Of a stretch of DNA of 54,839 nt, positions 72 through 18,410 are shown in pieces. Positions within the stretch are counted from its first letter, which is position 1. Each line of letters opens with the position of its first letter. The notes below the pieces were generated by a model, which worked only from the letters and a program-made list of their open reading frames with translations, was not told the origin of the DNA and did not search any database. The position numbers and the translations under genes are program-made. The DNA comes from an uncultured Clostridium sp. (GTDB lineage Bacteria; Bacillota; Clostridia; TANB77; CAG-508), in NCBI GenBank assembly GCA_947303785.1, contig CAMYZH010000004.1, positions 1 through 54,839 on the forward strand. The letters are read 5' to 3'.

Positions 72-1385
72 ATGAAAGAAATATATTTTCAAAATATAAA
101 CGAGTATATTAACAAAGAAGTAACTATTGAGGGATTTGTTGATAATATTCGAGATTTGCAATATGTTCAATTTTTAATTGTGAGAGATAGTTCCGGAAAA
201 TTACAAGTTACCATTGAAAAAAATGAAGAAAATAAAGAACTTAATGAAATAATTTCTAATTTAACAGTTGAAAGTACAGTTAAAATAAAAGGAACAATAC
301 TTGAAAATGAAAAAGTAAAATTAAATGGAAAGGAATTAATACCAACAGAAATTATAGTTACTAGTAAATGTTTAGAAGAATTACCATTAAACTATAGAGA
401 TAGCAAGTCCGCACTATTAGGTACTAGATTAAACTATAGATTTTTAGATTTAAGAAATGAAAAAAATTTGTTAATGTTTAAAGTACAAACTTGTCTTATA
501 AATGCTATGAGAGAATTTGTACTAAGGAAGAATTTTGTGGAAATTCACACACCAAAATTCATAAGTGTTCCAAGTGAATCTGGCTCAAATGTTTTTGAAG
601 TAAAATATTTTGATAGAAAGGCATATTTAGCGCAGAGCCCTCAATTTTATAAGCAAATGGCAATGGCTAGTGGCTTTGAAAAAGTTTTTGAAGTAGCACC
701 TGCATTTAGAGCTGAAAATTCAAATTCATACAGACATGCAACTGAATTTAATTCATTTGACATTGAGATGAGCTATGTAGAGAATTTAGAAGAATTAATA
801 AATTTTGAAGAAGAATTATTGATATATTCATTAAAAAAAGTTAAAGAAGAATATGGAATAAAAATAAAAGAATTATTTAATGTTGACGTTGTTATACCAA
901 CTAGACCTTTTCCAAGAATAAAGTTAGAAGAATTATATGAAGAATTAGAGAAAAAATATGATTTTAAAATGAATTATGAAGATGTTGGAGATATGAATGC
1001 TGAATCAGAGAAACTTGCTTCTGAATATATTAAAGAAAAATATGGACATGAATTTGTTTTTATAACAGATTTTAGCGCTAATAAAAGAGCGTTTTATCAC
1101 AAGAGAAAAAATGGGATTCCTATTGGAGCAGACCTTATTTGGAAAGGGTGCGAAATAACAACTCTTGCACTAAGAGAACATAGATATGAAGAATTGTGCA
1201 AACAGGCTTATGAAAAAGGATTAGGTGAAGATGTAAAATTTTACCTTGAATTTTTTAAATATGGCTGTCCTCCACATGGTGGATTTGCTATTGGAGTAGA
1301 AAGAGTTACTATGTTACTATTAGAAACAGGGTCTTTAAAGGAAACAATGTTTTTATTTAGAGGACCAAGCAGATTGAAACCATAG
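72..1385 (+). CDS. aspS: aspartate--tRNA ligase, type 2 (archaeal-like class IIb AspRS)
   Basis: 437 aa ORF with a GGAGGAGG RBS upstream of the ATG. N-terminal OB fold, then class II motifs FRAENSNSYRHATEF..FDIEMSY and GGFAIGVERV. Length fits short AspRS/AsnRS-type enzymes. Confidence 0.8.
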   Translation: MKEIYFQNINEYINKEVTIEGFVDNIRDLQYVQFLIVRDSSGKLQVTIEKNEENKELNEIISNLTVESTVKIKGTILENEKVKLNGKELIPTEIIVTSKCLEELPLNYRDSKSALLGTRLNYRFLDLRNEKNLLMFKVQTCLINAMREFVLRKNFVEIHTPKFISVPSESGSNVFEVKYFDRKAYLAQSPQFYKQMAMASGFEKVFEVAPAFRAENSNSYRHATEFNSFDIEMSYVENLEELINFEEELLIYSLKKVKEEYGIKIKELFNVDVVIPTRPFPRIKLEELYEELEKKYDFKMNYEDVGDMNAESEKLASEYIKEKYGHEFVFITDFSANKRAFYHKRKNGIPIGADLIWKGCEITTLALREHRYEELCKQAYEKGLGEDVKFYLEFFKYGCPPHGGFAIGVERVTMLLLETGSLKETMFLFRGPSRLKP

Positions 1386-1447
1386 TGAAATTGTTTATTT
1401 CCTGATAATTATAGTAACAAATAAAAATAAAAAAGAAGGTATTGAAG

Positions 1448-2242
1448 ATGAATAAATATGATGAATATCTTAATTTTGCGAAAGATATTGCCCAATATGC
1501 AGGGAAAATAATGTTAAAATATTTTAATCATCCTAATGGTGAAAAATATAAAGACGATAAAACAATTGTGACTTTGGCAGATACAGAAATTAATTCTTAT
1601 TTGATAAAAGAAGTAAAAGAAAAATATCCTGACCATGCCGTAGATGGTGAGGAAGAACAATTTGGAAAAAGTAATTATATGTGGGTATGTGACCCTATTG
1701 ATGGAACTTCTATGTATGCAAGGCATATTCCAGTTGCAGTTTTTTCACTAGCATTGGTAATAGATGGTGAGCCTGTTGTAGGTGTTGTTTATGACCCTTT
1801 TACAGATAATATGTATAGTGCTATAAAAGGAAAAGGTGCATATAAAAATGATGATAAGATGAGTGTTAATTCTATTTTATTAGATGATATGAGAAGTGTT
1901 TCACATTTTGATATGTGGCCAGAAGCGGAATACAATATATTTGATGTAGTAAAAAAATTAGGAGAGAAGACTTATTTTGTCGGAATCGGAAGTGTTATAA
2001 GAGCAAGTATGTGTGTTGCGAGTGGCGAGTTTAATTTAGCTATATATCCTGACACAAAACGTAGAAATTGTGATATTGCTGCTGTTAAAGTAATTGTTGA
2101 AGAAGCGGGTGGAAAAGTTACAAATATATTTGGAGACAAGCAACGATATGATCAAAGTATTAAAGGTGCTGTAATCAGTAATGGATTAGTTCATGATGAA
2201 GTTATAAATGTAATTAAAGATTATATTGGTTTGGAAGAATAA
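1448..2242 (+). CDS. inositol monophosphatase family protein
   Basis: IMPase signature WVCDPIDGT and a C-terminal GSV..A...A.G region. I prefer ATG 1448 (AGAAGG RBS 9 nt upstream) over the TTG at 1442 in the ORF track. Confidence 0.8.
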   Translation: MNKYDEYLNFAKDIAQYAGKIMLKYFNHPNGEKYKDDKTIVTLADTEINSYLIKEVKEKYPDHAVDGEEEQFGKSNYMWVCDPIDGTSMYARHIPVAVFSLALVIDGEPVVGVVYDPFTDNMYSAIKGKGAYKNDDKMSVNSILLDDMRSVSHFDMWPEAEYNIFDVVKKLGEKTYFVGIGSVIRASMCVASGEFNLAIYPDTKRRNCDIAAVKVIVEEAGGKVTNIFGDKQRYDQSIKGAVISNGLVHDEVINVIKDYIGLEE

Positions 2243-2324
2243 TTAGTAGAAGAAGTATGAAATGAAGGCTTTTATTTTTATTGATAATATATTATAATGA
2301 AACAAATTATTAAAAGGAGTAAAG

Positions 2325-4091
2325 ATGAAGAAAAATAATTTATCTAAAGTTTTAAAAAAGATATATAGATTATTAGATAAGAAGCAAAAACTAAGATTTA
2401 TAATAATAGTATTAATAATGATTATTTCAGCTATATTAGCTCAGATGACGCCAAAAGCAATAGGTTGGCTTACTGATGATATTTTATCAAAAAAATTTAT
2501 TTCATTTGATAAAGTAATACCATTTCTTATTTTTATATTAATAGTAAATGTTGTTAATGAAATAATCAAAATCATAAGAAGAGTATTAGTAGAAGATGTA
2601 GCAACAAAAACAGAGAAAAAAGCAAGAGGGATGGTAATAAAGTCTCTTTTAATGGCACCGTTGTCATATTTTAGAAAGAATATGACAGGAAATATTCATG
2701 GAAGATTGAATAGATGTCTTGATGGTACGATAAAATTAGAAAAATTATTATTTATGGATTTTGCACCTGCAATATTTAATAGTATTGCTGCAATTGTTAT
2801 TATATTTATAACACTTCCAATATCTTTAGCTTTACCAATGATGTTAGTAATACCAATTGGAGTGTTTATAGTTTTAAAACAGATTCAGAGCCAAAAGGGT
2901 ATTAGAGTAGAATTATTAAATAGTAAGTCAGAAATGGATGGAACTATTGTTGAATTAATAAATGGAATTGAAGTAATAAGAATCTGTAATAGTTTAGATT
3001 TTGAAACAAATAGATTTGATAATAAATCTGAATTTTTAAGAGCAAAAGAAATGAAACATCATAAGGCGATGGCTTTATATGATTGTTTGAAATTCATAAA
3101 TCAAGCTGTATTTACTGTTTTAGTTATTGGAGTCTCAACTTATTTGGCAACGAAAAACATTATTTCTGTTGGTAGTGTTTTAACAGCATATTTATGTTTT
3201 AATCAACTGCTTAAACCACTAGAAGAATTACATAGAATTTTCGATGAAGTTTCAGAATGTACAGTTCTTGCAACAGATTTCTTTAAAATGACAGAAATAG
3301 AGAACGACTTTTCTTATTTACCGATAAATTCGAAATCAGAAAACAAAATTACTGATGAAATAATAAATATGGAAAATATCACATTTACCTATCCAGAAAA
3401 TGAAGACAAAGTGATACTTGATAATTTTAGTATTGATATAGAAAAAGGAACTTATCTTGGAATAGCCGGACCATCAGGGTGTGGTAAATCATCATTAATA
3501 AAATCAATTTGCAAATTAGAAAAAGCAAATGGAACAATAATTGTTGATAATATTAATTTAAATAATTTATCAAGAAAAGATATTTCTCAAATGATTGCTT
3601 TAGTGCCACAAAGCCCATTTTTAATAGCTGGAACAATTTATGATAATATTACTTATGGTATAGATAGAGAGGTTTCAAAAGAAGAAGTAGAAGAAGCTTC
3701 AAAAAGGGCTTATATATATGATTATATAAATGGATTACCAGAAAAATTTGATACAATGGTTTCTGAAGGCGGAAATAATTTATCTGGTGGCCAAAGACAA
3801 AGAATTGCAATTGCTAGAATTTTTTTGAGAAAGCCTAAAATTCTTATATTAGATGAGGCTACTTCGGCACTAGACAATACTTCAGAAAAGCATATACAAG
3901 CAGAAATAGAAAAGATGAAAGAAGAAAATAATACAACAATAATTGCTATTGCCCATAGATTAACTACTCTAAAGAATTGTGATAGAATTATAGTTCTTAA
4001 TAAGGGACATATAGAAGAGGAAGGAAAGTTTGATGAGTTGATTAATAAGGCAGGAATGTTTAGTGATATGTATTATGGAAAATTGAACTAA
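2325..4091 (+). CDS. ABC exporter, fused permease/ATP-binding protein (MsbA/type I exporter-like)
   Basis: 588 aa with an N-terminal 6-TM region. Walker A GPSGCGKSS, signature LSGGQRQR, Walker B ILILDEATSALD. Confidence 0.85.
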   Translation: MKKNNLSKVLKKIYRLLDKKQKLRFIIIVLIMIISAILAQMTPKAIGWLTDDILSKKFISFDKVIPFLIFILIVNVVNEIIKIIRRVLVEDVATKTEKKARGMVIKSLLMAPLSYFRKNMTGNIHGRLNRCLDGTIKLEKLLFMDFAPAIFNSIAAIVIIFITLPISLALPMMLVIPIGVFIVLKQIQSQKGIRVELLNSKSEMDGTIVELINGIEVIRICNSLDFETNRFDNKSEFLRAKEMKHHKAMALYDCLKFINQAVFTVLVIGVSTYLATKNIISVGSVLTAYLCFNQLLKPLEELHRIFDEVSECTVLATDFFKMTEIENDFSYLPINSKSENKITDEIINMENITFTYPENEDKVILDNFSIDIEKGTYLGIAGPSGCGKSSLIKSICKLEKANGTIIVDNINLNNLSRKDISQMIALVPQSPFLIAGTIYDNITYGIDREVSKEEVEEASKRAYIYDYINGLPEKFDTMVSEGGNNLSGGQRQRIAIARIFLRKPKILILDEATSALDNTSEKHIQAEIEKMKEENNTTIIAIAHRLTTLKNCDRIIVLNKGHIEEEGKFDELINKAGMFSDMYYGKLN

Positions 4092-6868: not shown

Positions 6869-7966
6869 ATGGAAAAGAAATTAGGTTTTGGATGTATGAG
6901 ACTTCCAATGAGTGAAGGAGAAGTTGATTATGATGAATTCAAAAAAATGATTGATTACTATATGGAACAAGGTTTTAATTATTTTGACACAGCACATGGA
7001 TATTTAGGCGGGAAAAGTGAAATTGCAATTAGAGAATGTTTAGCTAAAAGATATCCAAGAGAAAGTTATATATTAACTAATAAATTAACAAAACCCTATT
7101 TTGGGTCACAAGATGAAATAAGAACTTTTTTTAAAAATCAGTTAGAATGGTGTGGTGTTGAATATTTTGATTATTATTTAATGCATGCACAAGATAGAAA
7201 TACTTATCAACATTTTCAAAACACTAATGCTTATCAAGAGTGTTTAAAACTAAAAGAAGAAGAAAAAATAAAACATTTAGGCATTTCATTCCATGATACA
7301 GCAGAAATGCTAGAACAAATATTAACAGAGCATCCAGAAGTTGAAATAGTTCAAATACAGTTTAATTATGCAGATTATGAATCGGCAAGTGTGCAATCTA
7401 AAAAAGTATATGAGGTATGCCGTAAATTTAATAAACCAGTATTGGTTATGGAACCAGTTAAAGGTGGAGGTTTAGTAAACTTACCAGATGAGGCCAAAAA
7501 ATTATTTGATGATTTAAATCAGAATATGAGTTATGCAAGTTATGCAGTAAGATTTGCAGCTAGTTTTGATGGAATGTATAAAGTTTTGTCTGGAATGAGT
7601 AGTTTTGAACAACTTAAAGATAATGTTGGCTATATGAAAGAATTTAAGCCTTTAAATCAAAATGAAATGGAGACTGTGTTAAAAGTTGGAGAATTTTTAA
7701 GAAATATAGGAGGAATTCCATGTACTGCATGTAGATATTGTGTAGATGGTTGTCCAATGAAAATATCAATACCAGATTTATTTTCTTGTTATAATGCAAA
7801 AGTACAATTTAAAGATTGGAATGCAGGATATTATTATAATGTACATACACAAGCAGATCATGGAAAAGCTTCAGATTGTATAAAATGCGGTAAATGTGAA
7901 AGAATTTGCCCACAACATTTGGAAATTAGAAATTTATTAACTAAAGTATCAGAAGTTTTTGAATAA
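6869..7966 (+). CDS. aldo/keto reductase with C-terminal 4Fe-4S ferredoxin-type domain
   Basis: AKR N-terminus LGFGCMRLP..FDTAHGY. C-terminal Cys clusters CTACRYCVDGCP and CIKCGKCERICP. ATG 6869 is preferred because a GGAG lies 7 nt upstream. Confidence 0.8.
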   Translation: MEKKLGFGCMRLPMSEGEVDYDEFKKMIDYYMEQGFNYFDTAHGYLGGKSEIAIRECLAKRYPRESYILTNKLTKPYFGSQDEIRTFFKNQLEWCGVEYFDYYLMHAQDRNTYQHFQNTNAYQECLKLKEEEKIKHLGISFHDTAEMLEQILTEHPEVEIVQIQFNYADYESASVQSKKVYEVCRKFNKPVLVMEPVKGGGLVNLPDEAKKLFDDLNQNMSYASYAVRFAASFDGMYKVLSGMSSFEQLKDNVGYMKEFKPLNQNEMETVLKVGEFLRNIGGIPCTACRYCVDGCPMKISIPDLFSCYNAKVQFKDWNAGYYYNVHTQADHGKASDCIKCGKCERICPQHLEIRNLLTKVSEVFE

Positions 7967-7982
7967 TAAAAGTGAGGGAAAA

Positions 7983-9236
7983 ATGAAAATATTATATTTT
8001 GATTGCTCAAGTGGAATATGTGGTAATATGGTATTAGGTGCATTACTTGATATTATTGATGATGAAAGCTATTTTTTAAATGAAATTAATAAGCTAAATA
8101 TCGATGGATATAAAATTGAAATTTCTAAAAAAGATTCATATGGAATTAATGGTAGATATGTAAATGTTATTATTGATGGTAAAGATGAGTATGGACATAT
8201 TCATCATATACATAATTGTCACAATCAAGACCACGAGTCTGACCAAGACCAAGATCAAGACCATGGCCATGAACATGACCACGAACATGATCATCATCAT
8301 GAACATAGAAACTTGTATGATGTAAATGAAATTATTGATAAAAGTAGCTTAAATGACGAAACTAAAAAACTAGCCAAAGAAATATTTTTAAAAGTGGCTA
8401 AGGCTGAAAGCAAAGTTCATGGAAAGCCAATAGAACAAGTACATTTTCATGAGGTTGGAGCAATAGATTCAATAATAGATATTGTAGGAACAGCAATTTT
8501 AATTAACAAAATTGATCCAGATGCTATTATTTCAAGCGTAGTAAATGAAGGACATGGATTTATAGAATGTGCTCATGGAAAAATGAGTGTTCCAGTACCT
8601 GCTACTTCGCAAATATTTGCTAATGAAAATGTTAAATTTAAACAAATTGATGTTGATACAGAACTTGTTACTCCAACAGGGGCAGCGATAATATCAACAT
8701 TAGCAAAAGATTATACAATGATGCCAGAGATGAAGCTAGAAAAAGTTGGGTATGGCGCAGGTTTTAAGGATATTGGATATTCTAACCTTTTAAAGGTATA
8801 TTATGGTGAGATGATAAGTTCACAGTCTGATATGTATGTAATTGAAACTAATATTGATGATTCTAATGGCGAAGAACTTGGATATACAATGGAAAAACTC
8901 TTTAAAAATAATGCAAATGATGTTTTCTATACTCCTATTTATATGAAGAAAAATAGACCCGCATATAAGCTTGAGGTAATATGTCAAAAAGAAAATTTAG
9001 ATGATTTATTAGAAATAATTTTTAGAGAAACAACGACTATTGGCGCAAGATATTATAAAGTAGATAGGGCTGAACTAAAACGTGAAATAGTTGAAATAGA
9101 TACAAAATATGGGAAAATTTCTGGAAAGAAAATACTAACTCCCAAAGGAAAAGTTTATATATACCCAGAATATGAAAGTATTAAGGAATTAGCTGAAAGA
9201 GAAAATATTCCTTTAAAGGAATTATATAAATTATAA
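7983..9236 (+). CDS. larC: nickel insertion protein LarC (DUF111) with His/Asp-rich metal-binding insert
   Basis: MKILYFDCSSGICGNMVLGALLD N-terminus, HFHEVGAIDSIIDIVG motif, and the His-rich tract HIHHIHNCHNQDHESDQDQDQDHGHEHDHEHDHHHEH. Confidence 0.85.
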   Translation: MKILYFDCSSGICGNMVLGALLDIIDDESYFLNEINKLNIDGYKIEISKKDSYGINGRYVNVIIDGKDEYGHIHHIHNCHNQDHESDQDQDQDHGHEHDHEHDHHHEHRNLYDVNEIIDKSSLNDETKKLAKEIFLKVAKAESKVHGKPIEQVHFHEVGAIDSIIDIVGTAILINKIDPDAIISSVVNEGHGFIECAHGKMSVPVPATSQIFANENVKFKQIDVDTELVTPTGAAIISTLAKDYTMMPEMKLEKVGYGAGFKDIGYSNLLKVYYGEMISSQSDMYVIETNIDDSNGEELGYTMEKLFKNNANDVFYTPIYMKKNRPAYKLEVICQKENLDDLLEIIFRETTTIGARYYKVDRAELKREIVEIDTKYGKISGKKILTPKGKVYIYPEYESIKELAERENIPLKELYKL

Positions 9237-9321
9237 AAAAGGGGCATAAAGTTGGAAAAAATTAGAAGGTATGTTTGAAAATTAAACAGAACATTAAGGA
9301 AAATAAAGGAGAGCTAAGTTT

Positions 9322-9870
9322 ATGGAAGAATATATTGATATTTTAGATGAAAATGGAATTCCAATTAATAAATCAAAAGAAAGAAGTGCTGTTCATAGAG
9401 ATGGAGATTGGCATAAAGTAATACAATTATTTATAATTAATGATGGTAAAATACTATTACAACAAAGAGCATTAACGAAAAAATCTGATCCAGGCAAGTG
9501 GTGCGCTTCAGCATCAGGCCATATTAGTGCTGGGAAAACAAGCTATGATGCAGCAATACAAGAATTTAGCGAAGAACTTGGAATTAATGTTGAGAATGAA
9601 AAAATAAATTTAGTAGATACTTTTAAATCACCTACAATAAGATTTAATAAAGGTGAGAAAATTTATAATAATCATTTTGTTGATTTATATATCAGTACGC
9701 AAAACATTAATTTAGAAAATATAAAATTACAAAAGGAAGAAGTCGAACAAGTAAAATTTTATTCTGTTGATGAATTTGAAGAAATGGTTAAAACAAAAGA
9801 TGAGAGGCTTGCAAATACTCCAATATTATTTGAACACTTATTAAAAGCAATTAAAGATATGGAAGGATAA
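9322..9870 (+). CDS. Nudix hydrolase (182 aa; distant paralogue of the 19606 and 20342 genes)
   Basis: Nudix box region GHISAGKTSYDAAIQEFSEELGI. It has the same length and the same N-terminal pattern (..ID.LDENGI......R...H..G.WH) as the tandem pair. Confidence 0.8.
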   Translation: MEEYIDILDENGIPINKSKERSAVHRDGDWHKVIQLFIINDGKILLQQRALTKKSDPGKWCASASGHISAGKTSYDAAIQEFSEELGINVENEKINLVDTFKSPTIRFNKGEKIYNNHFVDLYISTQNINLENIKLQKEEVEQVKFYSVDEFEEMVKTKDERLANTPILFEHLLKAIKDMEG

Positions 9871-9882
9871 ATCATTTAAGCA

Positions 9883-11040
9883 ATGGAAGAAAAATCAAAA
9901 CAAACTGCTATATTAAAAAAACAAAAAGGATTATACCAAGGAAATTTAAACAAGGAAGATAATAATGGAAATATTGAATTCATAAATATAAGCCAATTAT
10001 CTTATGAAGATTTATCTAAAATGTTTTTTCATTTTTCATTAAAAAAAGATAAGAATTCAATAGATAAAAGAGGTTTAGTTTCACAAATTGGAAGAAATTC
10101 AAAAGGAATTGATGAAAAAAAATCAATTTTCTTTTCTTATAGCATAGAAGGTTTATTAGAAACATGGGACCAATGGCTAAAATGGAGAATGAATAGATTA
10201 TATAACCCATATTTCCAAGAAGAGAATAAAAGTATTAAAGAAAGGATAGCAAATAATACTGCTTCTGAAGAAGAAAAAGGAAAGTATTATTCTAAATGGG
10301 AGCAATGGGTAAATGAATTTACTAGTGGGGAATATAAAGAAGATGTCAAAAAACTTAAGTTCCTTTTTGATTTTCAAATTGATGAAATGTTATCAAGCAA
10401 TTATTATTCATTAGATCTAATAGAAGGAGAGGATTTTTCATTTGACGATATAGATGAACACAAAAGTAAAATCATATCTCGAAAAGACGACAGCCATTTA
10501 AAATCGATAGAATATAAAATGCTTGCTACAAGGTATGGAAAATATAGTGATTTAAATAGCCCTAAGGTTGACAAATGGAATATGCATACAAAAATGAAAG
10601 ATGGTGATGGAGTTAAAATTGACCCAAGTAGAATAAAGCAATTATCATTATCTAATGGGAAAAATAGTGTTTTAGATATAGTTTTGTATTTATATGATAA
10701 ATATAGCGAAATGATACCAAGCGAGCAAAGGGCAGAATTTGATTTATTAGATAAATATATAGAATATGTAAAAGAACAGATTCGAAATAATGGTTTATCA
10801 ACATTTAATAGAGACGATAAAATACATGAAGTAGAATTAGTGAGCCATTTTCATGATCAAAAATCTGATAATTTTTTTCAAGATATGAAAAGTGGAGTTT
10901 ATTCTATACCTTCATATATTATTACTCCAAATCAAATTGCAAGAGCTTCATTAAATGTTCCACTTGGCTTAATAGATGGCGCAACCCAAAGAGTTAGGAA
11001 TGATAGAATCAACACACCAAAATATATAGAACATTGTTAA
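9883..11040 (+). CDS. hypothetical protein, no recognisable domain
   Basis: 385 aa open frame in a stop-rich AT genome. It is soluble and Lys/Glu/Trp-rich, sits 13 nt after the Nudix stop, and ends 20 nt before the ABC ATPase start. Confidence 0.6.
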   Translation: MEEKSKQTAILKKQKGLYQGNLNKEDNNGNIEFINISQLSYEDLSKMFFHFSLKKDKNSIDKRGLVSQIGRNSKGIDEKKSIFFSYSIEGLLETWDQWLKWRMNRLYNPYFQEENKSIKERIANNTASEEEKGKYYSKWEQWVNEFTSGEYKEDVKKLKFLFDFQIDEMLSSNYYSLDLIEGEDFSFDDIDEHKSKIISRKDDSHLKSIEYKMLATRYGKYSDLNSPKVDKWNMHTKMKDGDGVKIDPSRIKQLSLSNGKNSVLDIVLYLYDKYSEMIPSEQRAEFDLLDKYIEYVKEQIRNNGLSTFNRDDKIHEVELVSHFHDQKSDNFFQDMKSGVYSIPSYIITPNQIARASLNVPLGLIDGATQRVRNDRINTPKYIEHC

Positions 11041-11060
11041 AAATCATAGGGGAGATATTA

Positions 11061-12050
11061 ATGGAAAAGGAAATAATAACAGTTAATCATATTTCAAAAA
11101 AATTTAAAGTATCTAAAAGAGAAGCTGGATTAAAGAATGCAATAAAATCCTTTTTTAAAAGAGAATACACAATAATTAATAGTTTAGAAGATATAAGTTT
11201 TTCTATTAAAGAAGGTGAAATAGTGGGATATATCGGACCAAATGGTGCTGGAAAGTCTACCACTCTTAAAATTATGTCAGGTATTTTAGTTCCTACATCT
11301 GGAGAATGTAAAGTTAATGGATATATTCCATGGAAAAACAGAAAAAAATATGTAAAAAATATAGGCGTTGTATTTGGACAAAGATCTGGATTGTGGTGGG
11401 ATGTCCCACCAATTGATTCATTTGAGCTTTTAAAAGATATATATGAAATTCCTCAAAAAGAATACGAAGAGAAATTAAGAGAACTAAAAGAATATTTGAA
11501 ATTAGATGATATTTTAAATATTCCAACAAGGCAATTGAGTTTAGGGCAGAGAATGAGATGCGAAATTGCAAGTGCACTTCTGCACAATCCTAAGATATTA
11601 TTTTTAGATGAGCCAACTATTGGACTTGACGCTGTTTCAAAACTTGCACTTAGAAAGTGTATCAAACAAATTAATGAAAAAACTAAGGTTACAATAATAC
11701 TTACTACACATGATATGCAAGATATTGAAGCATTAACAGAAAGAATTATTCTAATTGGAAAAGGCAAAATATTATATGATGGAAGTTTGAACGAAATTAA
11801 GAGTAAATATAATGAAAATAGAAAAATGAACATAAAGTTTAAGTATACCAATACAAAAATTAGTATTCCTAATATAACTATTTTAGAACAAACGGAAGAA
11901 AGTGCAAGTATTGTTTTAAAACATAATGATGATTCTATGGCAAATATTTTAGAAAAACTTACAAACCAGGTTGAAGTAATAGATATGAACATTGAAGAAA
12001 TGTCTACAGATGATATAATTGCAAAGCTCTATAATGAATTAAAAATATAG
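11061..12050 (+). CDS. ABC transporter ATP-binding protein (COG4586-type, partner of ABC-2/DUF990 permeases)
   Basis: Walker A GPNGAGKST, signature LSLGQRMR, Walker B ILFLDEPTIGLD. AGGGGAG RBS before ATG 11061. Confidence 0.85.
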   Translation: MEKEIITVNHISKKFKVSKREAGLKNAIKSFFKREYTIINSLEDISFSIKEGEIVGYIGPNGAGKSTTLKIMSGILVPTSGECKVNGYIPWKNRKKYVKNIGVVFGQRSGLWWDVPPIDSFELLKDIYEIPQKEYEEKLRELKEYLKLDDILNIPTRQLSLGQRMRCEIASALLHNPKILFLDEPTIGLDAVSKLALRKCIKQINEKTKVTIILTTHDMQDIEALTERIILIGKGKILYDGSLNEIKSKYNENRKMNIKFKYTNTKISIPNITILEQTEESASIVLKHNDDSMANILEKLTNQVEVIDMNIEEMSTDDIIAKLYNELKI

Positions 12051-12056
12051 TGTTTT

Positions 12057-12100
12057 AAAACTCCTTTTTAGCAGTATACCGCTAAAGAGGAGTTTTTATT
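12057..12100 (+). terminator. rho-independent terminator after the ABC ATPase gene
   Basis: aaaactcctttttagc / gctaaagaggagtttt stem with 1 mismatch, followed by a T-run. Confidence 0.75.
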
Positions 12101-12116
12101 TATAAAATTAAAATTC

Positions 12117-12145
12117 TTGAAATAATAAATAAATAATGATAGAAT
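12117..12145 (+). promoter_or_regulatory. sigma-A type promoter of the inserted cassette
   Basis: TTGAAA, 17 nt spacer, TAGAAT, about 35 nt upstream of the AGGAGG RBS of the 12180 gene. Confidence 0.5.
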
Positions 12146-12179
12146 GTTACGCAATAGAAATGATTTTTAGGAGGGATTT

Positions 12180-14468
12180 ATGAGCAAATTTGATTTAGGC
12201 GGTAAAGGAAATTCATTAGTTAAGCTAAATGAAAATCATTATAATGTTCCAAACTTTTTTGTTTTAGATACAAGTTTTTTTGATGAGTTCCTTGAAGCAA
12301 ATAATATTAAAGAAAAAATTGATGATTTACTTAAAGAATTAAATTTTGAAAACTTTATAGAAATATCTAAAAAAATAAGAGATTTGTTCAAAGATACAAA
12401 AGCTACTCCAAGAATAAAACAATTTGTTAAAGATAATTTAACATCATTAAAAGATACAGTATATGCAGTTAGGTCTTCTGCCAATATTGAAGACAGTAGT
12501 GATAACTCTTGGGCAGGTTTATTTGATAGCTTTTTAAATGTTAAAAAAGAAGAGATTGAATCTAAAATAATTGGTTGTATAGAATCCTGTTTTTCTGCAA
12601 GAGTTCTAATATACAAATTAAAAAATAATATTACTATACCAATTAAAATGGCAGTAATTGTACAAGAAATGATTGTTAGTGAGTGTTATGGTACATTGTT
12701 CTCAAAAGATCCAATTACAGGAGAAGATATTATTCAAATAGACATAGGTCTTAATACAGTTACCCACTATGAAATAAAAAATAATACATTATATGATGTT
12801 AAAGGAAATGTAGTAGATAAAAAAATTTTTTTAGAATTAGGGCAAATTGCTAAAAGAATAGAAAAATTATATGAAACTGCAGTAGATATAGAATGGGTTA
12901 TAGATGGAAATGAGATTTATTTAATACAAGCTAGACCTATAACAACAATAAATGAAGAGATTACAAAAATTGTAGAATATGCTAAGAGTGTTAAATGGAA
13001 TTTTCATGTTACACGTTTAGTTTTATATTTTGTTAAATATTCTAATGTTGTGTTAGCAAGACAAAGTAAAAATATATATGATGTTTTAGGATTTGATTTA
13101 AAGCCTGATAATATGCTAATGTTAAATGGTAAAGAATATCATGAAACTACTACCCAAGAAGCGATACATAATTTTTTTGATAAAAAATTTAATGAAGATA
13201 ATCAGTTTTTTATAAAATTGGCTAATAATGAAATTAAGCTTTCAGAACAAATTGAAGATTATATAAAAGATTTATCTTCTAGAAAAAATGATTTAAATTC
13301 TATTGAAGAATTCGAAAGATTTAGAAAATATTTTGTAAAAACCGGAGCTCCTTTTAGCTTAATACCAGATGATTATTTGGAAAGAAGGGTAAAAGAAATT
13401 ATTGCAAAAGTAGTAAATGAACATGAAGATGTTGATACTATTTTTAACATTTTATCAACTTGTCCTAATCCTGAAGAAATCTTTTATAATGAAGAACCAT
13501 TAGATTTACTTAGAATTGCCAAAAAAATAAAAGAAAATGATGAGTTAAGAGAAGAACTTATAAAAAAACATGTAGAAAGATATTCATGGATGAAAGGCCC
13601 AATTCTTATTGAAGAACAAGCTTTTACATATAAAGAATATGAAGATAGAATTAATTATTTAATAACAACAGATATAGATAGAAAGATTGAAGATATACTA
13701 AATGCTAGAGAAAAAAGAGAAAAAGAAGTTACTGAGCTTATTAATAAATATCCATTTACAGAAGATGACAAGAGTATGATTTCTTCAATGAGAAAATTTG
13801 TATTTCTTAGAACTTTTATGGCTACTGTTCAAGATAGGTTGTTTTTCTTAGCTAGACATACTTTATTTTCACAAATAAGCAATGAATATAATATTCCTAA
13901 AAAAGAATTATTAATGTTAACTGCTGATGAAATTAGTGATTTACTAATAAATCATAAGGTTGAAGATTATATAAAAAGAGCTCACGATAGAGAGAAAGAA
14001 TATGCTATTATTACAATAGATGAAAAAGTTACTTCTTTTGTTGGTGATGAAGCTCAAAAAGTTGATAATATTCTTACTAGATATATAGATGTACAAAAAA
14101 GAAGCGAAACAAAGCAAAAAATAGAACCTTCTGATGATGTAGTTACTGGAATGATAGCCAATATGGGTTGTATTGTTGGTAGAGCAAAAATTCTTAATTC
14201 ATATGAAGATATTTCAAATGTTAATATTGGTGATATAATCATTTCAACTATGACATTACCTAATTATATTGCTGCAATGGAAAAAGCAAGAGGTTTTATA
14301 ACTGATGAAGGTGGAATTACTTGTCATGCAGCTATTTTGTCAAGAGAATTTAATGTTCCATGTATAGTTGGAACTTTGAATGCAACAAAAGTGATAAAAG
14401 ACAATGATTTAATAGAACTTGATGCCAATAATGGTATTGTTCGTATTTTAGAAAGGGAGGGTAAATAA
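12180..14468 (+). CDS. PEP-utilising enzyme family phosphotransferase with rifampin-phosphotransferase-like architecture (ATP-grasp N-domain, unknown central domain, C-terminal swivel-His domain)
   Basis: N-terminal PPDK_N motifs LGGKGNSL, VRSSANIEDS..WAGLFDS, AVIVQEM, DIEWVIDGNEIYLIQARPIT. C-terminal mobile domain GGITCHAAILSREFNVPCIVG. No PEP/pyruvate TIM-barrel domain. About 390 aa in the centre are unassigned. Confidence 0.7.
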   Translation: MSKFDLGGKGNSLVKLNENHYNVPNFFVLDTSFFDEFLEANNIKEKIDDLLKELNFENFIEISKKIRDLFKDTKATPRIKQFVKDNLTSLKDTVYAVRSSANIEDSSDNSWAGLFDSFLNVKKEEIESKIIGCIESCFSARVLIYKLKNNITIPIKMAVIVQEMIVSECYGTLFSKDPITGEDIIQIDIGLNTVTHYEIKNNTLYDVKGNVVDKKIFLELGQIAKRIEKLYETAVDIEWVIDGNEIYLIQARPITTINEEITKIVEYAKSVKWNFHVTRLVLYFVKYSNVVLARQSKNIYDVLGFDLKPDNMLMLNGKEYHETTTQEAIHNFFDKKFNEDNQFFIKLANNEIKLSEQIEDYIKDLSSRKNDLNSIEEFERFRKYFVKTGAPFSLIPDDYLERRVKEIIAKVVNEHEDVDTIFNILSTCPNPEEIFYNEEPLDLLRIAKKIKENDELREELIKKHVERYSWMKGPILIEEQAFTYKEYEDRINYLITTDIDRKIEDILNAREKREKEVTELINKYPFTEDDKSMISSMRKFVFLRTFMATVQDRLFFLARHTLFSQISNEYNIPKKELLMLTADEISDLLINHKVEDYIKRAHDREKEYAIITIDEKVTSFVGDEAQKVDNILTRYIDVQKRSETKQKIEPSDDVVTGMIANMGCIVGRAKILNSYEDISNVNIGDIIISTMTLPNYIAAMEKARGFITDEGGITCHAAILSREFNVPCIVGTLNATKVIKDNDLIELDANNGIVRILEREGK

Positions 14469-15602
14469 GTGGAAGTTTATGTTGATAATAATGCTACTAC
14501 AAAAGTTGATGAAGATGTTTTAAACGAAATGTTACCATATTTGAAAGAAAGTTTTGCTAATCCTAGTAGTTTATATGAGTCTGGAAAACAGACAAAAAAA
14601 GCTATTAATAAAGCAAGGTCTAATGTTGCTAAATTATTAAATGCAGAAGATAGTGAAATTATTTTTACAGCCTCTGCTACAGAGAGTAATGTTACAGCTA
14701 TTATGAGTGCTGCGAGAAACAGTAATGGAAAAAAGAGAATTATTACTTCTAAAATGGAACATGCTTCGATTTTAGAAACAATGAATTACCTAGAGACACG
14801 TGGCTTTGAGATCATTTATTTAGAGGTTGATGATAAAGGAAGAATTAATATTGAAGATTTAAAAAATGCTATTAATGAAGATACTTTCTTAATTACAGTA
14901 ATGCTAGCTAATAATGAACTTGGTAATATTTATCCAATTAAAGAATTTTGTAAAATAGCACATGAACATAATATTCTATTTCACTGTGATTGCACACAAG
15001 CTGTTGGAAAAATAAAAGTAGATGTTAAAGAGCTTGGTGTTGATACAGTTTCATTTTCTGGACATAAAATTCATGCACCAAAAGGAGTTGGAATATTATA
15101 TGTTAAAAATGGTACTCCATACACTCCACTATTATTTGGACATCAAGAAAATAACCGAAGAGGTGGAACTGAAAATGTACCTTATATTGTTGGATTAGGG
15201 AAAGCTGTTGAAAAAATAGTTGATGATGACTTAAAAAGCATCGAAAAAGTTAAAGAATTAAGAGATTATTTTGAAGAACAAATTAAGAGTAAATTAGATG
15301 GTATACATATTTATGGAGATATAGAAAATAGAATACCAAATACTTCAAATATTGCTTTTTTAAATGCAGATGGAAATGAGCTTGCAATTATACTTGAGGC
15401 TAATAATATAAATCTTTCAAATGGTTCTGCTTGTAACACATCTGAACCTAAACCTTCAGATGTATTGGTTGCATGTCATGCTAATCTTAAAGAATATTTT
15501 CCTATAAGAGTTAGTTTTGATATTAATAATACTAAAGAACAGGTTGATTATTTTATTAATAAATTAGTATCTAATGTAAATATGTTAAGGAGGAATAAAT
15601 AA
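14469..15602 (+). CDS. cysteine desulfurase, NifS/IscS-like (class V aminotransferase)
   Basis: The GTG start abuts the upstream TAA and follows a GGGAGGG RBS. PLP-Lys motif SFSGHKIHAPKG and active-site Cys region SNGSACNT. Confidence 0.85.
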   Translation: MEVYVDNNATTKVDEDVLNEMLPYLKESFANPSSLYESGKQTKKAINKARSNVAKLLNAEDSEIIFTASATESNVTAIMSAARNSNGKKRIITSKMEHASILETMNYLETRGFEIIYLEVDDKGRINIEDLKNAINEDTFLITVMLANNELGNIYPIKEFCKIAHEHNILFHCDCTQAVGKIKVDVKELGVDTVSFSGHKIHAPKGVGILYVKNGTPYTPLLFGHQENNRRGGTENVPYIVGLGKAVEKIVDDDLKSIEKVKELRDYFEEQIKSKLDGIHIYGDIENRIPNTSNIAFLNADGNELAIILEANNINLSNGSACNTSEPKPSDVLVACHANLKEYFPIRVSFDINNTKEQVDYFINKLVSNVNMLRRNK

Positions 15603-16207
15603 TGGCAATTCTAATTAATTTTAAAATATGTGATAATGCTCCAGAGTGTTTAGCTCCACCTACATGCAAAGCGGGAGCAATAAAGTGGAATGAAGAAAAG
15701 AAAACTTTGGAGATTGACAATAGCAAATGTAATTCATGTGGTCTTTGTATACCAACTTGTCCTATGGAAGCTATATTCTTGGCTAAAACAGATGAAGAAT
15801 ATAATCAAATTAAAAAAGAAATTGATGAAGATAAGAGAACAAGAAAAGATTTGTTTGTTGATCGCTATGGAGCTGTAGCTCTAATGGAAGCTTTTATGGC
15901 AACAGAGGATATGATAGAAGATAAGATTAAAAGAGATAATTTAACATTTATTGAAATATATGATCCTGAAAATGTTGAGTGTTTATTAAAGTCAATTCCT
16001 TTAAAAGAAATAACAGAGGGTATGCCAGATGATACAAAATATTACAAGATTAGTTTTACTGATAGCTTGATGAATAAATATGAAATTAAAAAACTACCTT
16101 CTTTATTATTGTTTAAAAGCGGAAAAATGCTTGGAAAAATTGAAGGATATTATCCAACTGATGAGAAGGAAGAGTTTTTCTCTATGATTAATGGAATAGT
16201 TAAATAA
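15602..16207 (+). CDS. 4Fe-4S ferredoxin domain fused to a thioredoxin-like domain lacking CxxC
   Basis: The ATG overlaps the nifS-like stop (ATAATGG). [12 protein letters not shown] cluster motif plus C10/C16/C22. The C-terminal [19 protein letters not shown] resembles the thioredoxin-fold end. No CxxC redox pair is seen. Confidence 0.6.
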
Positions 16208-16239
16208 AAATAGAATTAAAAAATAAGGAGGAATTTATT

Positions 16240-16536
16240 ATGGAAAGAAAATTTAATAAGGGAGATATTGTAAAACATTTTAAGAGAGAGAAAATGACAG
16301 AAGAACAACTAAGAGAGACACCAACATTATATTTATTTGAAATTATTGGAACTGCAAGACATTCAGAAAACAAAGAAGAATATATAATTTATAAGCCATT
16401 TTACCCAGCTGAATGTGTTAAAGGAGTAGATTTTGCTGCAAGACCTTTAGAGATGTTTATGTCAGAAGTAGATCATCAAAAATATCCAGAAGTTAAACAA
16501 AAATATCGTTTTGAATTATTTGATTTTAAAAATTAG
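16240..16536 (+). CDS. DUF1653 domain protein
   Basis: [23 protein letters not shown]...[22 protein letters not shown]. It is a clear paralogue of the ORF at 48459..48716. Confidence 0.7.
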
Positions 16537-16604
16537 ATGTAAATATCAAAGTAATGGCTACAGATGACATAATTGTGAAATTATATACTGAATTAAAAAA
16601 ATAG
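16530..16604 (+). pseudogene. relic of the 3' end of an ABC ATPase gene (diverged copy of 11976..12050)
   Basis: Reads [23 protein letters not shown], against IDMNIEEMSTDDIIAKLYNELKI* at the end of the intact ATPase (14/23 residues identical by manual alignment). It lies 31 nt before the permease start, as expected for the ancestral operon. Confidence 0.75.
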
Positions 16605-16635
16605 ACATAGAATTTAGAAAGGAATACAGCTATAA

Positions 16636-17433
16636 ATGAAAAAATACATTTCATATTTTAAGCTAAGGTATAATATGGCTTTGCAATATAGAGCATCTGC
16701 AATTGCAGGAATGTTTACACAGCTTTTTTGGGCAATTATGCAAATATTAATATTTATAGCGTTTTATAAAAATGCTTCAGGAAAAAATATATCATTAGAG
16801 CAATTAGTATCATATGTTTGGCTTAGACAAATTTTTTATTCATTAATTAATCATGTTACTGAAGGAGAAATAAAATCATCAATAGAAAATGGAAATGTTG
16901 TATATGAGTTGATTAAGCCAATCAATTTATATTGGATATGGTTCTTTAGAACTATTTCTTCAAGATTGGCTTCATGCTCAATAAAATGTATTCCAATTAT
17001 CCTGATAGCTCCATTTTTGCCAGGTGAGTTAAATTTAAATGGACCTGCAAGCTTAGAAGCATTTTTATTATTTACGATTACTTTGGTTTTTGGAATGTTT
17101 ATAATATCATCTATTATAAATTTATTTTATATTAGTATTTTTTATACAATGTCGTCTAAAGGTACAACATCAATATTTTATGGGACATTAGAATTTTTTG
17201 GAGGTGGATTTGTTCCAATTGCTCTTATGCCAATTAGCTGGCAAAAAGTGTGTTATTTTTTGCCAGCTAGTTTAGTTGCTGATTTACCATCTAGAATTTA
17301 TACTGGAAACATTGTAATTTCTGATGGCCTAAAATATCTTGGGGTTCAGATTATTTGGCTATTTATATTAATTGTATGTGGAAACTTCCTTTTAAATACA
17401 GCCCTAAAAAAAGTTGTTATTCAAGGAGGGTGA
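16636..17433 (+). CDS. ABC-2 family transporter permease (DUF990/COG4587-like)
   Basis: 265 aa multi-TM protein. The N-terminus YFKLRYNMALQYRASAIAGMFTQLFWAIMQI is typical of this permease family. Confidence 0.75.
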   Translation: MKKYISYFKLRYNMALQYRASAIAGMFTQLFWAIMQILIFIAFYKNASGKNISLEQLVSYVWLRQIFYSLINHVTEGEIKSSIENGNVVYELIKPINLYWIWFFRTISSRLASCSIKCIPIILIAPFLPGELNLNGPASLEAFLLFTITLVFGMFIISSIINLFYISIFYTMSSKGTTSIFYGTLEFFGGGFVPIALMPISWQKVCYFLPASLVADLPSRIYTGNIVISDGLKYLGVQIIWLFILIVCGNFLLNTALKKVVIQGG

Positions 17434-17434
17434 A

Positions 17435-18211
17435 ATGAAGGTATATTTTAAAACAATTATAATGAATATAAAATCACAACTTGAATATAGAAAAGCTTTT
17501 TTAATATCAGTATTTGGAAGCTTTTTAGTAACATTTCTTTTAATAGTAGCTGTATATTTTTTATTTTTAGATTTTAATCAAATAGGTGATTGGAACTTTT
17601 ATGAAGTTGCATTTCTATTTGGAATATCATTTTTTAATTTTGCTCTTGCAGAAATGTTTTTAAGAGGATTAGATCATTTTGAAGATACTGTTAGAAAAGG
17701 TGAATTTGACAGGTTAATGATAAGACCACAAAATTTGTTAATTCAAGCTACTAGCATGGAATTTGACATATCTAAAATTGGACGTTTAATTCAGTCGATT
17801 TTAATTATTGTTATCTCATTAATGAATATTAACATAGAATGGTCATTATATAAGGTAATAATATTAATTTTAATAAATATAGGTTGTTTTATTATTTTCT
17901 TTGGAATATTCATATTAAAAGCAGCATTTTGTTTTTGGACAATCAATGGACTTGAATTCATGAATATTCTATCTGAGGGTGGTAAAAAAGTAGCACAATA
18001 TCCAATAGATATTTATGCAAAATGGTTTAGAGTATTTTTTACTTATATAGTTCCATTCGGAATTGTAAACTATTATCCAGTAATGTATTTATTTGGAAAA
18101 TCTAATTTTTGGTTTTATGGTTTAATGCCACTTGGAACTATAGTATTTCTTTTATTTTGTTTATTGGCATGGGAAAAGGGCGTTAAACATTATGAATCTG
18201 TAGGTTCATAA
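17435..18211 (+). CDS. ABC-2 family transporter permease (DUF990/COG3694-like)
   Basis: ATG follows an AAGGAGGG RBS that overlaps the upstream TGA. Multi-TM protein with the LEYRKAFLISVFGSFL pattern. Confidence 0.75.
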   Translation: MKVYFKTIIMNIKSQLEYRKAFLISVFGSFLVTFLLIVAVYFLFLDFNQIGDWNFYEVAFLFGISFFNFALAEMFLRGLDHFEDTVRKGEFDRLMIRPQNLLIQATSMEFDISKIGRLIQSILIIVISLMNINIEWSLYKVIILILINIGCFIIFFGIFILKAAFCFWTINGLEFMNILSEGGKKVAQYPIDIYAKWFRVFFTYIVPFGIVNYYPVMYLFGKSNFWFYGLMPLGTIVFLLFCLLAWEKGVKHYESVGS

Positions 18212-18255
18212 TTGTAATAGGATTTTGTTTTAAATTCATAAATTTTCAAATATTT

Positions 18256-18298
18256 AAAAGATGAATTGTAAAAAAATAATAACAATATCATCTTTTTT
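18256..18298 (+). terminator. rho-independent terminator after the permease genes
   Basis: aaaagatgaattgt / acaatatcatctttt stem with a one-base bulge, followed by a T-run. Confidence 0.6.
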
Positions 18299-18364
18299 GA
18301 TTTTATAATAACCAATAAAGATATATATAAAATTTTAAAAATATAATGAAAATCTGGAAATAAA

Positions 18365-18373
18365 TGTTATAAT
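18365..18373 (+). promoter_or_regulatory. extended -10 element (TGtTATAAT) upstream of the DUF1016 gene
   Basis: tgttataat lies about 45 nt before the start codon. The same element precedes both tandem Nudix genes. Confidence 0.45.
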
Positions 18374-18381
18374 ATGAAAAA

Positions 18382-18410
18382 ACAAATTACGCAACAGGTG
18401 TTGCACGAAT
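18382..18410. repeat. left copy of a palindromic repeat flanking the DUF1016 gene
   Basis: acaaattacgcaacaggtgttgcacgaat. It matches the reverse complement of 19466..19494 at about 25 of 29 positions by manual alignment. Confidence 0.7.

Follow-up and report, generated by a model that had tools for sequence, protein, structure and literature searches.

A three-gene cassette of a histidine-swivel dikinase, a NifS-type cysteine desulfurase and a ferredoxin/thioredoxin-fold protein in an uncultured gut Clostridium

The stretch of DNA considered here, 54,839 nucleotides of contig CAMYZH010000004.1 (assembly GCA_947303785.1) and referred to throughout as the window, comes from an uncultured Clostridium sp. 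of the cattle gut, and it carries between positions 12117 and 16207 a cassette of three genes encoding a histidine-swivel dikinase, a class-I cysteine desulfurase of the NifS/IscS type, and a partner protein in which a ferredoxin domain is fused to a thioredoxin fold. The components are of known kinds, namely dikinases with the fold of rifampin phosphotransferase (RPH), class-I desulfurases with dedicated partners, and the ferredoxin and thioredoxin folds. In the libraries and literature searched, neither the partner family nor this combination of three genes has been described. An earlier account made by a model from the letters alone (the sequence-only reading) knew of no described pathway with this gene set, and this still stands: the literature, searched for the combination of genes, yielded no match.

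The closest described relative of the dikinase is RPH-Lm (structures 5HV1/5FBS; PMC4844700), with which it shares the order of ATP-grasp, helical and His-swivel domains, the catalytic histidine and the ATP-grasp motifs. It differs from RPH-Lm in being 17-20% identical and about 100 amino acids shorter, in scoring far below the NCBIfam cut-offs for RPH, and in having a desulfurase and an Fe-S protein encoded in its operon. The prodiginine ligases PigC, HapC and RedH also have the RPH fold, and in these enzymes a phosphohistidine phosphorylates an oxygen, which a nucleophile then displaces (PMC13534948). Such oxygen activation is the logic that the sequence-only reading had proposed for the window kinase, but the latter reaches 189 bits against an NCBIfam PigC cut-off of 1300, its locus is devoid of prodiginine genes, and the nucleophile would be sulfur. 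With phosphoenolpyruvate (PEP) synthase and PPDK the kinase has in common the PPDK_N domain, the PEP-utilizers mobile domain and the expected conversion of ATP to AMP and Pi; unlike them it has no PEP/pyruvate-binding barrel (PF02896).

On the sulfur side, Bacillus subtilis provides dedicated pairs of class-I desulfurase and acceptor, NifZ-ThiI, YrvO-MnmA as well as NifS-NadA (PMC13066941). The window resembles these in having an extra NifS/IscS-type desulfurase that adjoins and co-evolves with one partner beside a housekeeping SUF system, but PP-loop, rhodanese, scaffold and NadA-like domains are all missing from this partner, which is not among the acceptors described for desulfurases (PMC13066941). 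The NIF/MIS systems, built on NifS and NifU, are comparable in that the fusion gene lies within NifS-NifU-MnmA clusters of Saccharibacteria, Dojkabacteria and one unclassified bacterium, whereas the window's genome has no NifU. In the ISC system the electrons with which persulfide is reduced come from a ferredoxin; the ferredoxin domain of the window differs from it in being, by its cysteine pattern, of the [4Fe-4S] rather than the [2Fe-2S] type and in being fused to a thioredoxin fold. YcaO/TfuA and the PP-loop thiolases (ThiI, MnmA, LarE) are alike in logic only, with ATP activating an oxygen and sulfur from a desulfurase following. The operon contains no YcaO, TfuA or PP-loop protein (YcaO and TfuA domains had no Pfam or NCBIfam match in any of the four proteins encoded at the locus), and activation would fall to the His-swivel dikinase.

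The reading that we favour, with a probability of roughly 0.55, is that the window holds a horizontally acquired promoter-dikinase-NifS-fusion operon, and that the dikinase was recruited to the pair of NifS and fusion protein in one clade of ruminant-gut Bacillota. The cassette and the gene that follows it are laid out as below, with the basis of each assignment in brackets.

12117-12145, + strand: cassette promoter, TTGAAA-17-(TG)ATAGAAT with -10 TAGAAT and TG extension (motif, and position homologous to other cassettes)
12180-14468, + strand: gene for the 762-aa His-swivel dikinase (open reading frame, Pfam/NCBIfam, motifs, AlphaFold2 model, dN/dS)
14469-15602, + strand: gene for the 377-aa class-I NifS/IscS-type cysteine desulfurase (open reading frame with GTG start, Pfam, motifs)
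15602-16207, + strand: gene for the 201-aa fusion of a seven-cysteine ferredoxin and a mono-cysteine thioredoxin fold, the last gene of the conserved cassette (Pfam, alignment, AlphaFold2)
16240-16536, + strand: gene for a 98-aa DUF1653 protein, a local passenger outside the conserved cassette (PF07866)

The unit is a self-contained operon of three genes. DNA similarity of 80-82% between the window and four other contigs (L017, L018, L044 and L045) extends from 12160 to 16207-16220 only. It thus begins at the kinase gene's ribosome-binding site and ceases shortly beyond the fusion-gene stop, and the flanks are unrelated. The same three genes recur in L212/L213 and in L214, giving six distinct genomic contexts with the window included (the sequence immediately downstream in L045 is that of L017), so that the sequence-only reading was right to see kinase, desulfurase and Fe-S protein as travelling in one operon. 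It was also right about a promoter of their own: a TTGACAT-17-TGATAATAT promoter, homologous in position to 12117-12145, is conserved ahead of the cassette in L017, L018 and L044. Promoter-like sites as such are not enriched in this AT-rich stretch (46 against 49.8 in shuffled sequence). A hairpin with a T-run stands directly 3' of the fusion-gene stop in L017, L018, L044 and L045. Pairwise synonymous divergence (dS) between cassettes is 0.6-1.35, about 0.9, and within a genome pair is similar for the three genes, while dN/dS comes to 0.13-0.17 (kinase), 0.06-0.10 (NifS) and 0.02-0.14 (fusion protein); the low dN/dS and the similar dS imply that the three genes are maintained by selection and have one shared history.

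The junctions within the operon are tight. The kinase stop TAA (14466-14468) abuts GTG 14469, which has the Shine-Dalgarno sequence GGGAGGG upstream, and this start is sound because the L017 orthologue has an ATG at the homologous codon, overlapping the kinase stop as TAATG. The desulfurase and fusion genes overlap by 1 nt in ATAATGG at 15602, and overlapping stop and start codons are seen in all five contexts that have called genes or read junctions. All four open reading frames exist where the sequence-only reading had placed them, with domain assignments that the Pfam and NCBIfam profile scores support, and its account of coupling was accurate for the TAA-GTG abutment and the ATAATGG overlap; the last gap, between the fusion and DUF1653 genes, is 32 nt and not 33. 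The DUF1653 protein itself is genuine (PF07866, 49.4 bits against a gathering threshold of 23.5), but its suggested role as a partner or target of the other three is not supported by its distribution. A scan of species genomes gave 80 loci with the fusion gene, all in metagenome-assembled genomes or other assemblies of uncultured organisms, and DUF1653 accompanies none of them (0/80); it is absent from the other cassette contexts and present in the window only, and contigs of other strains depart from the window right after 16212. A four-gene module is thus rejected, DUF1653 being missing both from the other cassettes and from all 80 loci.

The desulfurase matches Aminotran_5 (PF00266) with 284 bits over residues 3-362 and has the pyridoxal phosphate (PLP) lysine, Lys200, in an SGHK motif (GHK 198-200) and the catalytic cysteine, Cys322, in GSAC (SAC 320-322), motifs retained in 54 and 59 of 60 orthologues, respectively. 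Its score against the NifS equivalog TIGR03402, 446 bits, falls below the cut-off of 530.75, and on such profile evidence it is a distinct NifS-like subfamily. The same genome has an Rrf2-SufCBDSU-MnmA operon on another contig and a third, stand-alone NifS paralogue that is 44% identical, with no NifU found. Because the genome has SUF, MnmA and another NifS, the cassette enzyme is an extra desulfurase with a dedicated partner and not the housekeeping copy.

In the partner, Pfam recognises a Fer4 domain and, below threshold, a thioredoxin. The cysteines of the ferredoxin domain are C10, C16 and C22, followed by C43, C46, C49 and C53; the second motif is complete (CxxCxxCxxxCP, with C53 preceding the proline), and the first, C10-x5-C16-x5-C22, has three cysteines, a seven-cysteine pattern that we take to resemble those of 7Fe ferredoxins and of clusters with a free iron. 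At the thioredoxin site N-V-E-C127 replaces C-G-P-C, leaving a single active-site cysteine in the second position, as the sequence-only reading had noted in describing an Fe-S/thioredoxin-fold protein without a CxxC pair. All eight cysteines, C127 included, are invariant among 38 diverse fusion-protein sequences, and the interdomain linker, which reads KDLFVDRYG in the window copy, is highly conserved. The AlphaFold2 model has a pLDDT of 93. Foldseek finds relatives in the PDB for its C-terminal half only, all of them thioredoxins (target TM 0.6-0.7), and hhalign against E. coli TrxA gives 95.7%, with C127 aligned to Cys35 and the Cys32 position substituted. Neither Pfam nor NCBIfam has a family devoted to the fusion protein, no structure of it has been solved, and a review of 2026 does not mention it.

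The family is nonetheless large: its members fall into 608 clusters at 90% identity and, with E <= 1e-30, into 72 at 50%. Its carriers are small-genome 'Bacilli', 'Tenericutes' and 'Erysipelotrichaceae', several phyla of the candidate phyla radiation (CPR), and DPANN archaea. In 62 of the 80 loci the fusion gene has NifS as a neighbour, which nearly always lies directly upstream, and a contig end truncates 5 of the 18 remaining; DPANN loci and many CPR loci have the fusion gene with no NifS nearby. The window fusion protein is 44-60% identical to those of the other 78 loci, and its NifS mostly 53-63%, falling to 39-44% in the CPR and unclassified-bacterium loci. In 25 loci there are genes between the two, in the constant order NifS, a 297-aa unknown, a GNAT protein, an S-adenosylmethionine (SAM) methyltransferase, ~320-aa and ~135-aa proteins, and fusion, and because these optional genes keep their fixed order something more than random insertion is suggested. 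Operons of this kind, running from NifS to fusion with a methyltransferase of 240 aa, can be seen in L042 (3782-7606), L057, L078 and L052. On the question of whether the families co-occur in other genomes, which the sequence-only reading had wished to see answered, the outcome is mixed: NifS and the fusion protein form a conserved pair, and the kinase joins it in one clade only. The NifS and fusion genes of the cassette are a diverged copy of this widespread, undescribed pair, which we take to be the evolutionary core of the operon.

Two rival explanations of the pair have to be weighed at this point. The first is that NifS is a dedicated maturase of the Fe-S clusters in the fusion protein, much as the B. 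subtilis NifS serves NadA, and that the fusion protein, once matured, serves the dikinase or its product as redox partner or as regulator, no sulfur ending in a metabolite. Dedicated donor-target pairs of class-I desulfurases such as NifS-NadA are known in Bacillota (PMC13066941), the fusion protein has seven invariant cysteines of cluster type, and the DPANN loci and many of the CPR loci have the fusion gene apart from any NifS. Against this, SUF, which could mature a ferredoxin, accompanies the pair in 35 of 50 carrier genomes and in most Bacillota carriers (SufB/D), and an invariant Cys127 at the thioredoxin active site suggests thiol or persulfide chemistry; we consider a maturase distinctly unlikely.

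The second would make the pair an auxiliary housekeeping system for Fe-S assembly or tRNA thiolation, similar to NIF/MIS, to which the kinase is irrelevant. It draws on the order NifS-NifU-fusion-MnmA, or a rearrangement of it, in L058, L062, L101 and L114 (two Saccharibacteria, one Dojkabacteria and one unclassified bacterium), and on the finding that these genomes, together with the other CPR and DPANN genomes searched, contain no SufB/D. The window's genome, however, has SUF, SufU and MnmA elsewhere and no NifU, and the pair is absent from 20 sister species (the fusion gene occurs in 1 of 21 species of the genus) and hence accessory here. In 23 of the 80 loci, moreover, the fusion gene has a SAM methyltransferase for a neighbour, and in P0385 the two are joined in one protein; Fe-S assembly needs no methyltransferase. 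A housekeeping role for the cassette pair is accordingly improbable. Two proteins may be recorded here as possible Rosetta stones, though they could also be fusions made by gene calling: P0385 (497 aa), in which a class-I methyltransferase is joined to the ferredoxin/thioredoxin protein, and P0275 (468 aa), in which the ferredoxin half is joined to a radical SAM domain. A search of 400 genomes of the class for the fusion protein returned single-domain matches only, and the family is rare among the species representatives of this class.

The dikinase comprises a PPDK_N domain (176 bits) and a PEP-utilizers mobile domain (80 bits), with no PF02896/PEP-utilizers_C barrel in the Pfam scan and with about 390 residues, 258-650, that have no Pfam assignment. 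Its predicted layout is an ATP-grasp domain at about 1-257 (GGKG at 7-10), a helical substrate domain at about 258-650 and a swivel domain at about 654-760 (His716, in TCHAA), and in the AlphaFold2 model (pLDDT 84) the central domain is built mostly of helices. The domain order of RPH, which the sequence-only reading had recognised, is recovered by Foldseek, whose best full-length match to the model is RPH 5HV1 (E 1e-37, ~890 alignment columns), followed at lower rank by the RPH ATP-binding domain alone (1e-16), PEP synthase (5e-13) and PPDK (~1e-10). A profile of 33 kinase homologues matches PEP synthase at the ATP-grasp and swivel domains, and matches the Listeria RPH chains in two stretches, the better being profile positions 3-307 in the ATP-grasp domain. 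Invariant in the 33 are GGKG, the ATP-grasp residues and His716, along with W273, R279, H464, W470, F540, T545, L580 and R604 in the central domain, where several more arginines are nearly invariant.

That the kinase might be a genuine rifampin phosphotransferase, with nifS a generic housekeeping copy beside it, was the alternative that the sequence-only reading itself had named, and the shared domain order and best structural match speak for it. The NCBIfam RPH models (NF041857 and NF000283) do not: they give 190 bits against a cut-off of 999 and 117.5 against 1700, scores no better than those from the PEP synthase and PPDK models (TIGR01418, 237 bits against 739.75; NF005057, 247 against 598). 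With the profile of 33 homologues, no match to RPH was found in the sequence of the central domain, and the NifS, the third in its genome, has a dedicated partner with which it co-evolves. It is very hard to credit this alternative, and the kinase is, by fold prediction and model scores, of the RPH fold but not a rifampin phosphotransferase.

Close orthologues of the kinase (75-86% identity, 762-764 aa) are few, and every one examined sits in a cassette. The next relatives, at ~40% identity, are ~800-806 aa long and are preceded in G001, G003, G011, L039, L132 and L133 by a 347-aa HTH/HAD-like gene and a 136-aa gene. This ~800-aa family of RPH fold has its own conserved operon of three abutting or overlapping genes (L013 9503-10953; L014, L015, L039, L132 and L133), its partners being the 347-aa protein, with a helix-turn-helix (HTH) domain and a weak HAD/S6PP-like match, and the 136-aa protein, which belongs to no known family. 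In L015 (6076-8452; genome G011) the ~800-aa paralogue is seemingly split by an in-frame stop near residue 260 and is either a split gene or a pseudogene.

A number of observations weigh against a functional tie between the kinase and the pair. The kinase central domain occurs in 3 of the 50 genomes with the fusion gene, one of these being a cassette; conversely, 18 metagenome loci with the central domain include none with the fusion gene (0/18) and one with a distant NifS/NifU, and in four species of the genus the ~800-aa kinase paralogue is present while the fusion gene is absent. The families do not co-occur outside the narrow cassette clade (at least 75% amino-acid identity), a result that the sequence-only reading had itself listed as refuting its module and that goes part of the way to doing so, and the pair functions without this kinase in more than 90% of carrier genomes. 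All of the cassettes may descend from one gene-joining event, in which case the six contexts are not six independent associations. Adjacency is in itself weak evidence, because operons running from NifS to fusion also hold GNAT, methyltransferase and unknown genes. Apart from the question of coupling, no sequence similarity of the central domain to RPH could be detected, and at the other cassette contexts no integrase, recombinase or flanking repeats were found.

These observations lend themselves to the view that two unrelated functions share one cassette, a stand-alone dikinase acting on a xenobiotic such as an antibiotic or a rumen plant phenolic, and a pair that was merely co-mobilised with it. 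Kinase and pair do not go together beyond the clade, the fusion gene is sporadic, the operons around the pair are heterogeneous, and the RPH-fold enzymes known so far modify small molecules without a partner (PMC4844700). What stands against that view is that a promoter-to-terminator unit of three genes with overlapping codons has been kept in six contexts despite near-saturated synonymous divergence (dS ~0.9), and that the cassette pair is a diverged paralogue coexisting with a standard copy in L214. In that contig a standard methyltransferase-CN_hydrolase-fusion module occupies 1366-3498 and the cassette 7001-11036, 3.5 kb away, with the two fusion proteins 43% identical; since L214 holds the standard paralogue alongside, the cassette pair would appear to be specialised and non-redundant. 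We hold two unrelated functions to be plausible but somewhat doubtful, and the converse, that kinase and pair are functionally coupled in this clade and that the phosphorylated product receives the sulfur, to be a tentative proposition of slightly better standing. A weak further link is that distant homologues of the accessory genes of the ~800-aa kinases lie between NifS and fusion in L042, L057 and L078 (blastp E 4e-9; hhalign 71%, E 3.6e-5). The precedent of PigC/HapC, in which the RPH fold activates an oxygen for a nucleophile, counts on the side of coupling too. Other dikinases near the pair, a 604-aa relative at 2.6 kb in L047 and one at 7 kb in L039, were set aside as approximating chance for 80 loci on a rough estimate, as was homology of the central kinase domain to the 328-366-aa genes inside other NifS operons, between which there is no similarity.

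Returning to the operon as a recruited dikinase and a sulfur-handling pair, a sequence of steps can be proposed. NifS, with PLP on Lys200 and with Cys322, would convert cysteine to alanine and an enzyme persulfide, and the sulfur would be handed to the lone thioredoxin-site cysteine of the partner, Cys127. The partner's ferredoxin domain, with one complete [4Fe-4S] site and a three-cysteine site for which either a [3Fe-4S] cluster or a [4Fe-4S] one with an open iron is conceivable, might supply electrons or hold sulfide for delivery. A sulfur relay through Cys127 and the clusters, as read from sequence patterns, is somewhat more probable than its absence. The dikinase, for its part, would turn ATP into AMP and Pi by way of phospho-His716 and place a phosphate on an oxygen of an acceptor bound in the helical central domain, and in this clade the phosphorylated product of the dikinase might be the acceptor for the sulfur. 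The most specific form of the proposal is a new ATP-dependent thiolation, in which the dikinase O-phosphorylates a carbonyl or hydroxyl of a metabolite or RNA and sulfur mobilised by NifS, delivered by the ferredoxin/thioredoxin-fold partner as a Cys127 persulfide or as cluster-bound sulfide, displaces the phosphate; this we consider unlikely.

Desulfurases work through dedicated acceptors, of which few are known, and the lineages that carry the fusion family (small-genome rumen and gut Bacillota, CPR and DPANN) are known almost only from metagenomes; a function for the partner would fill a gap in the sulfur and Fe-S trafficking of reduced genomes. The window cassette is the one place where the pair is locked to an ATP-driven dikinase, and with three proteins the system is compact enough for expression and assay. 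If kinase and pair do act on one substrate, this would be a new route of biological thiolation; were the thiolation chemistry set out above correct, it would add a third activation strategy to PP-loop adenylation and YcaO phosphorylation and give a widespread family of desulfurase partners its first function. If they are uncoupled, a real conserved pair will still have been told apart from accidental neighbours.

The surroundings of the cassette bear on how it arrived, and the relevant features are these.

11971-12050, + strand: left copy of an 80-nt direct repeat, the working 3' end of an ABC ATPase gene (11034-12050) (repeat search)
12057-12096, + strand: intrinsic terminator hairpin with a 16-bp stem and T-run, 3' of the ABC ATPase gene and at the left edge of the inserted DNA (terminator scan)
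16525-16604, + strand: right copy of the repeat, a non-coding remnant of the final ~23 codons of an ABC ATPase gene (...VMATDDIIVKLYTELKK*) (repeat search)
16636-18211, + strand: two ABC2_membrane_6 permease genes, context only (Pfam)

The cassette and the DUF1653 gene, an insert of 4.5 kb, separate the ABC ATPase gene from its two permease genes, and uninterrupted operons of ATPase, permease and permease are found in the relatives G015, of the same genus, and G028. The repeat copies are 76% identical. The ATPase tail encoded from the left copy, ...IEEMSTDDIIAKLYNELKI*, matches the ATPase tail in G015, and the right copy ends about 31 nt before the permease start. The cassette is thus inserted between the ATPase and permease genes, with the ABC genes and DUF1653 as bystanders, and on balance we would regard it as horizontally acquired. 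The terminator at 12057-12096 is the sole terminator-like site within 11900-18400; since it follows the ATPase gene and none was found between 12096 and 18400, transcription of the permease genes probably starts at the cassette promoter and reaches them by read-through. Both junctions of the insert are covered by independent bovine-gut contigs (X1 record 3, 11903-12382; X4 record 18, 12050-12620; X2 record 14, 16147-16958), and the arrangement is therefore not an assembly chimera. The base composition and codon use of the cassette are like those of the host, and its intergenic sequence is not repeated within the genome. Metatranscriptome contigs fall in all three cassette genes, in a library that may contain DNA. 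An Rfam scan of the whole window gave no RNA family, riboswitch or other leader. A plasmid or phage origin was rejected, as neither 72,556 plasmids nor 50,697 phage records yielded a homologue of the fusion protein.

Several other readings of the locus were tried and abandoned. DNA phosphorothioation of the Dnd/Ssp type was rejected, PADLOC matching the desulfurase only, as a generic IscS-like protein, and giving no match to the kinase, the fusion protein, DUF1653 or an upstream ORFan. A selenium reading, with the dikinase as a counterpart of selenophosphate synthetase and NifS as a selenocysteine lyase, was dropped in the absence of SelD, which was not found in the window's genome or in G436, and of a tRNA-Sec. 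Sulfur supply to LarE, a reading prompted by a stand-alone larC at 7959-9236 of the window, was likewise given up, as the best LarE score in the assembly, 40 bits, stays below the model cut-off of 150. The 385-aa open reading frame at 9883-11040, which precedes the ABC ATPase gene, has no Pfam, NCBIfam, PADLOC or PHROGs family and one weak relative, in L046 (25% over 234 aa). Far downstream, at 48522-48698, the window has a second DUF1653-like coding stretch, with 51% identity over 59 aa to the gene at 16240-16536.

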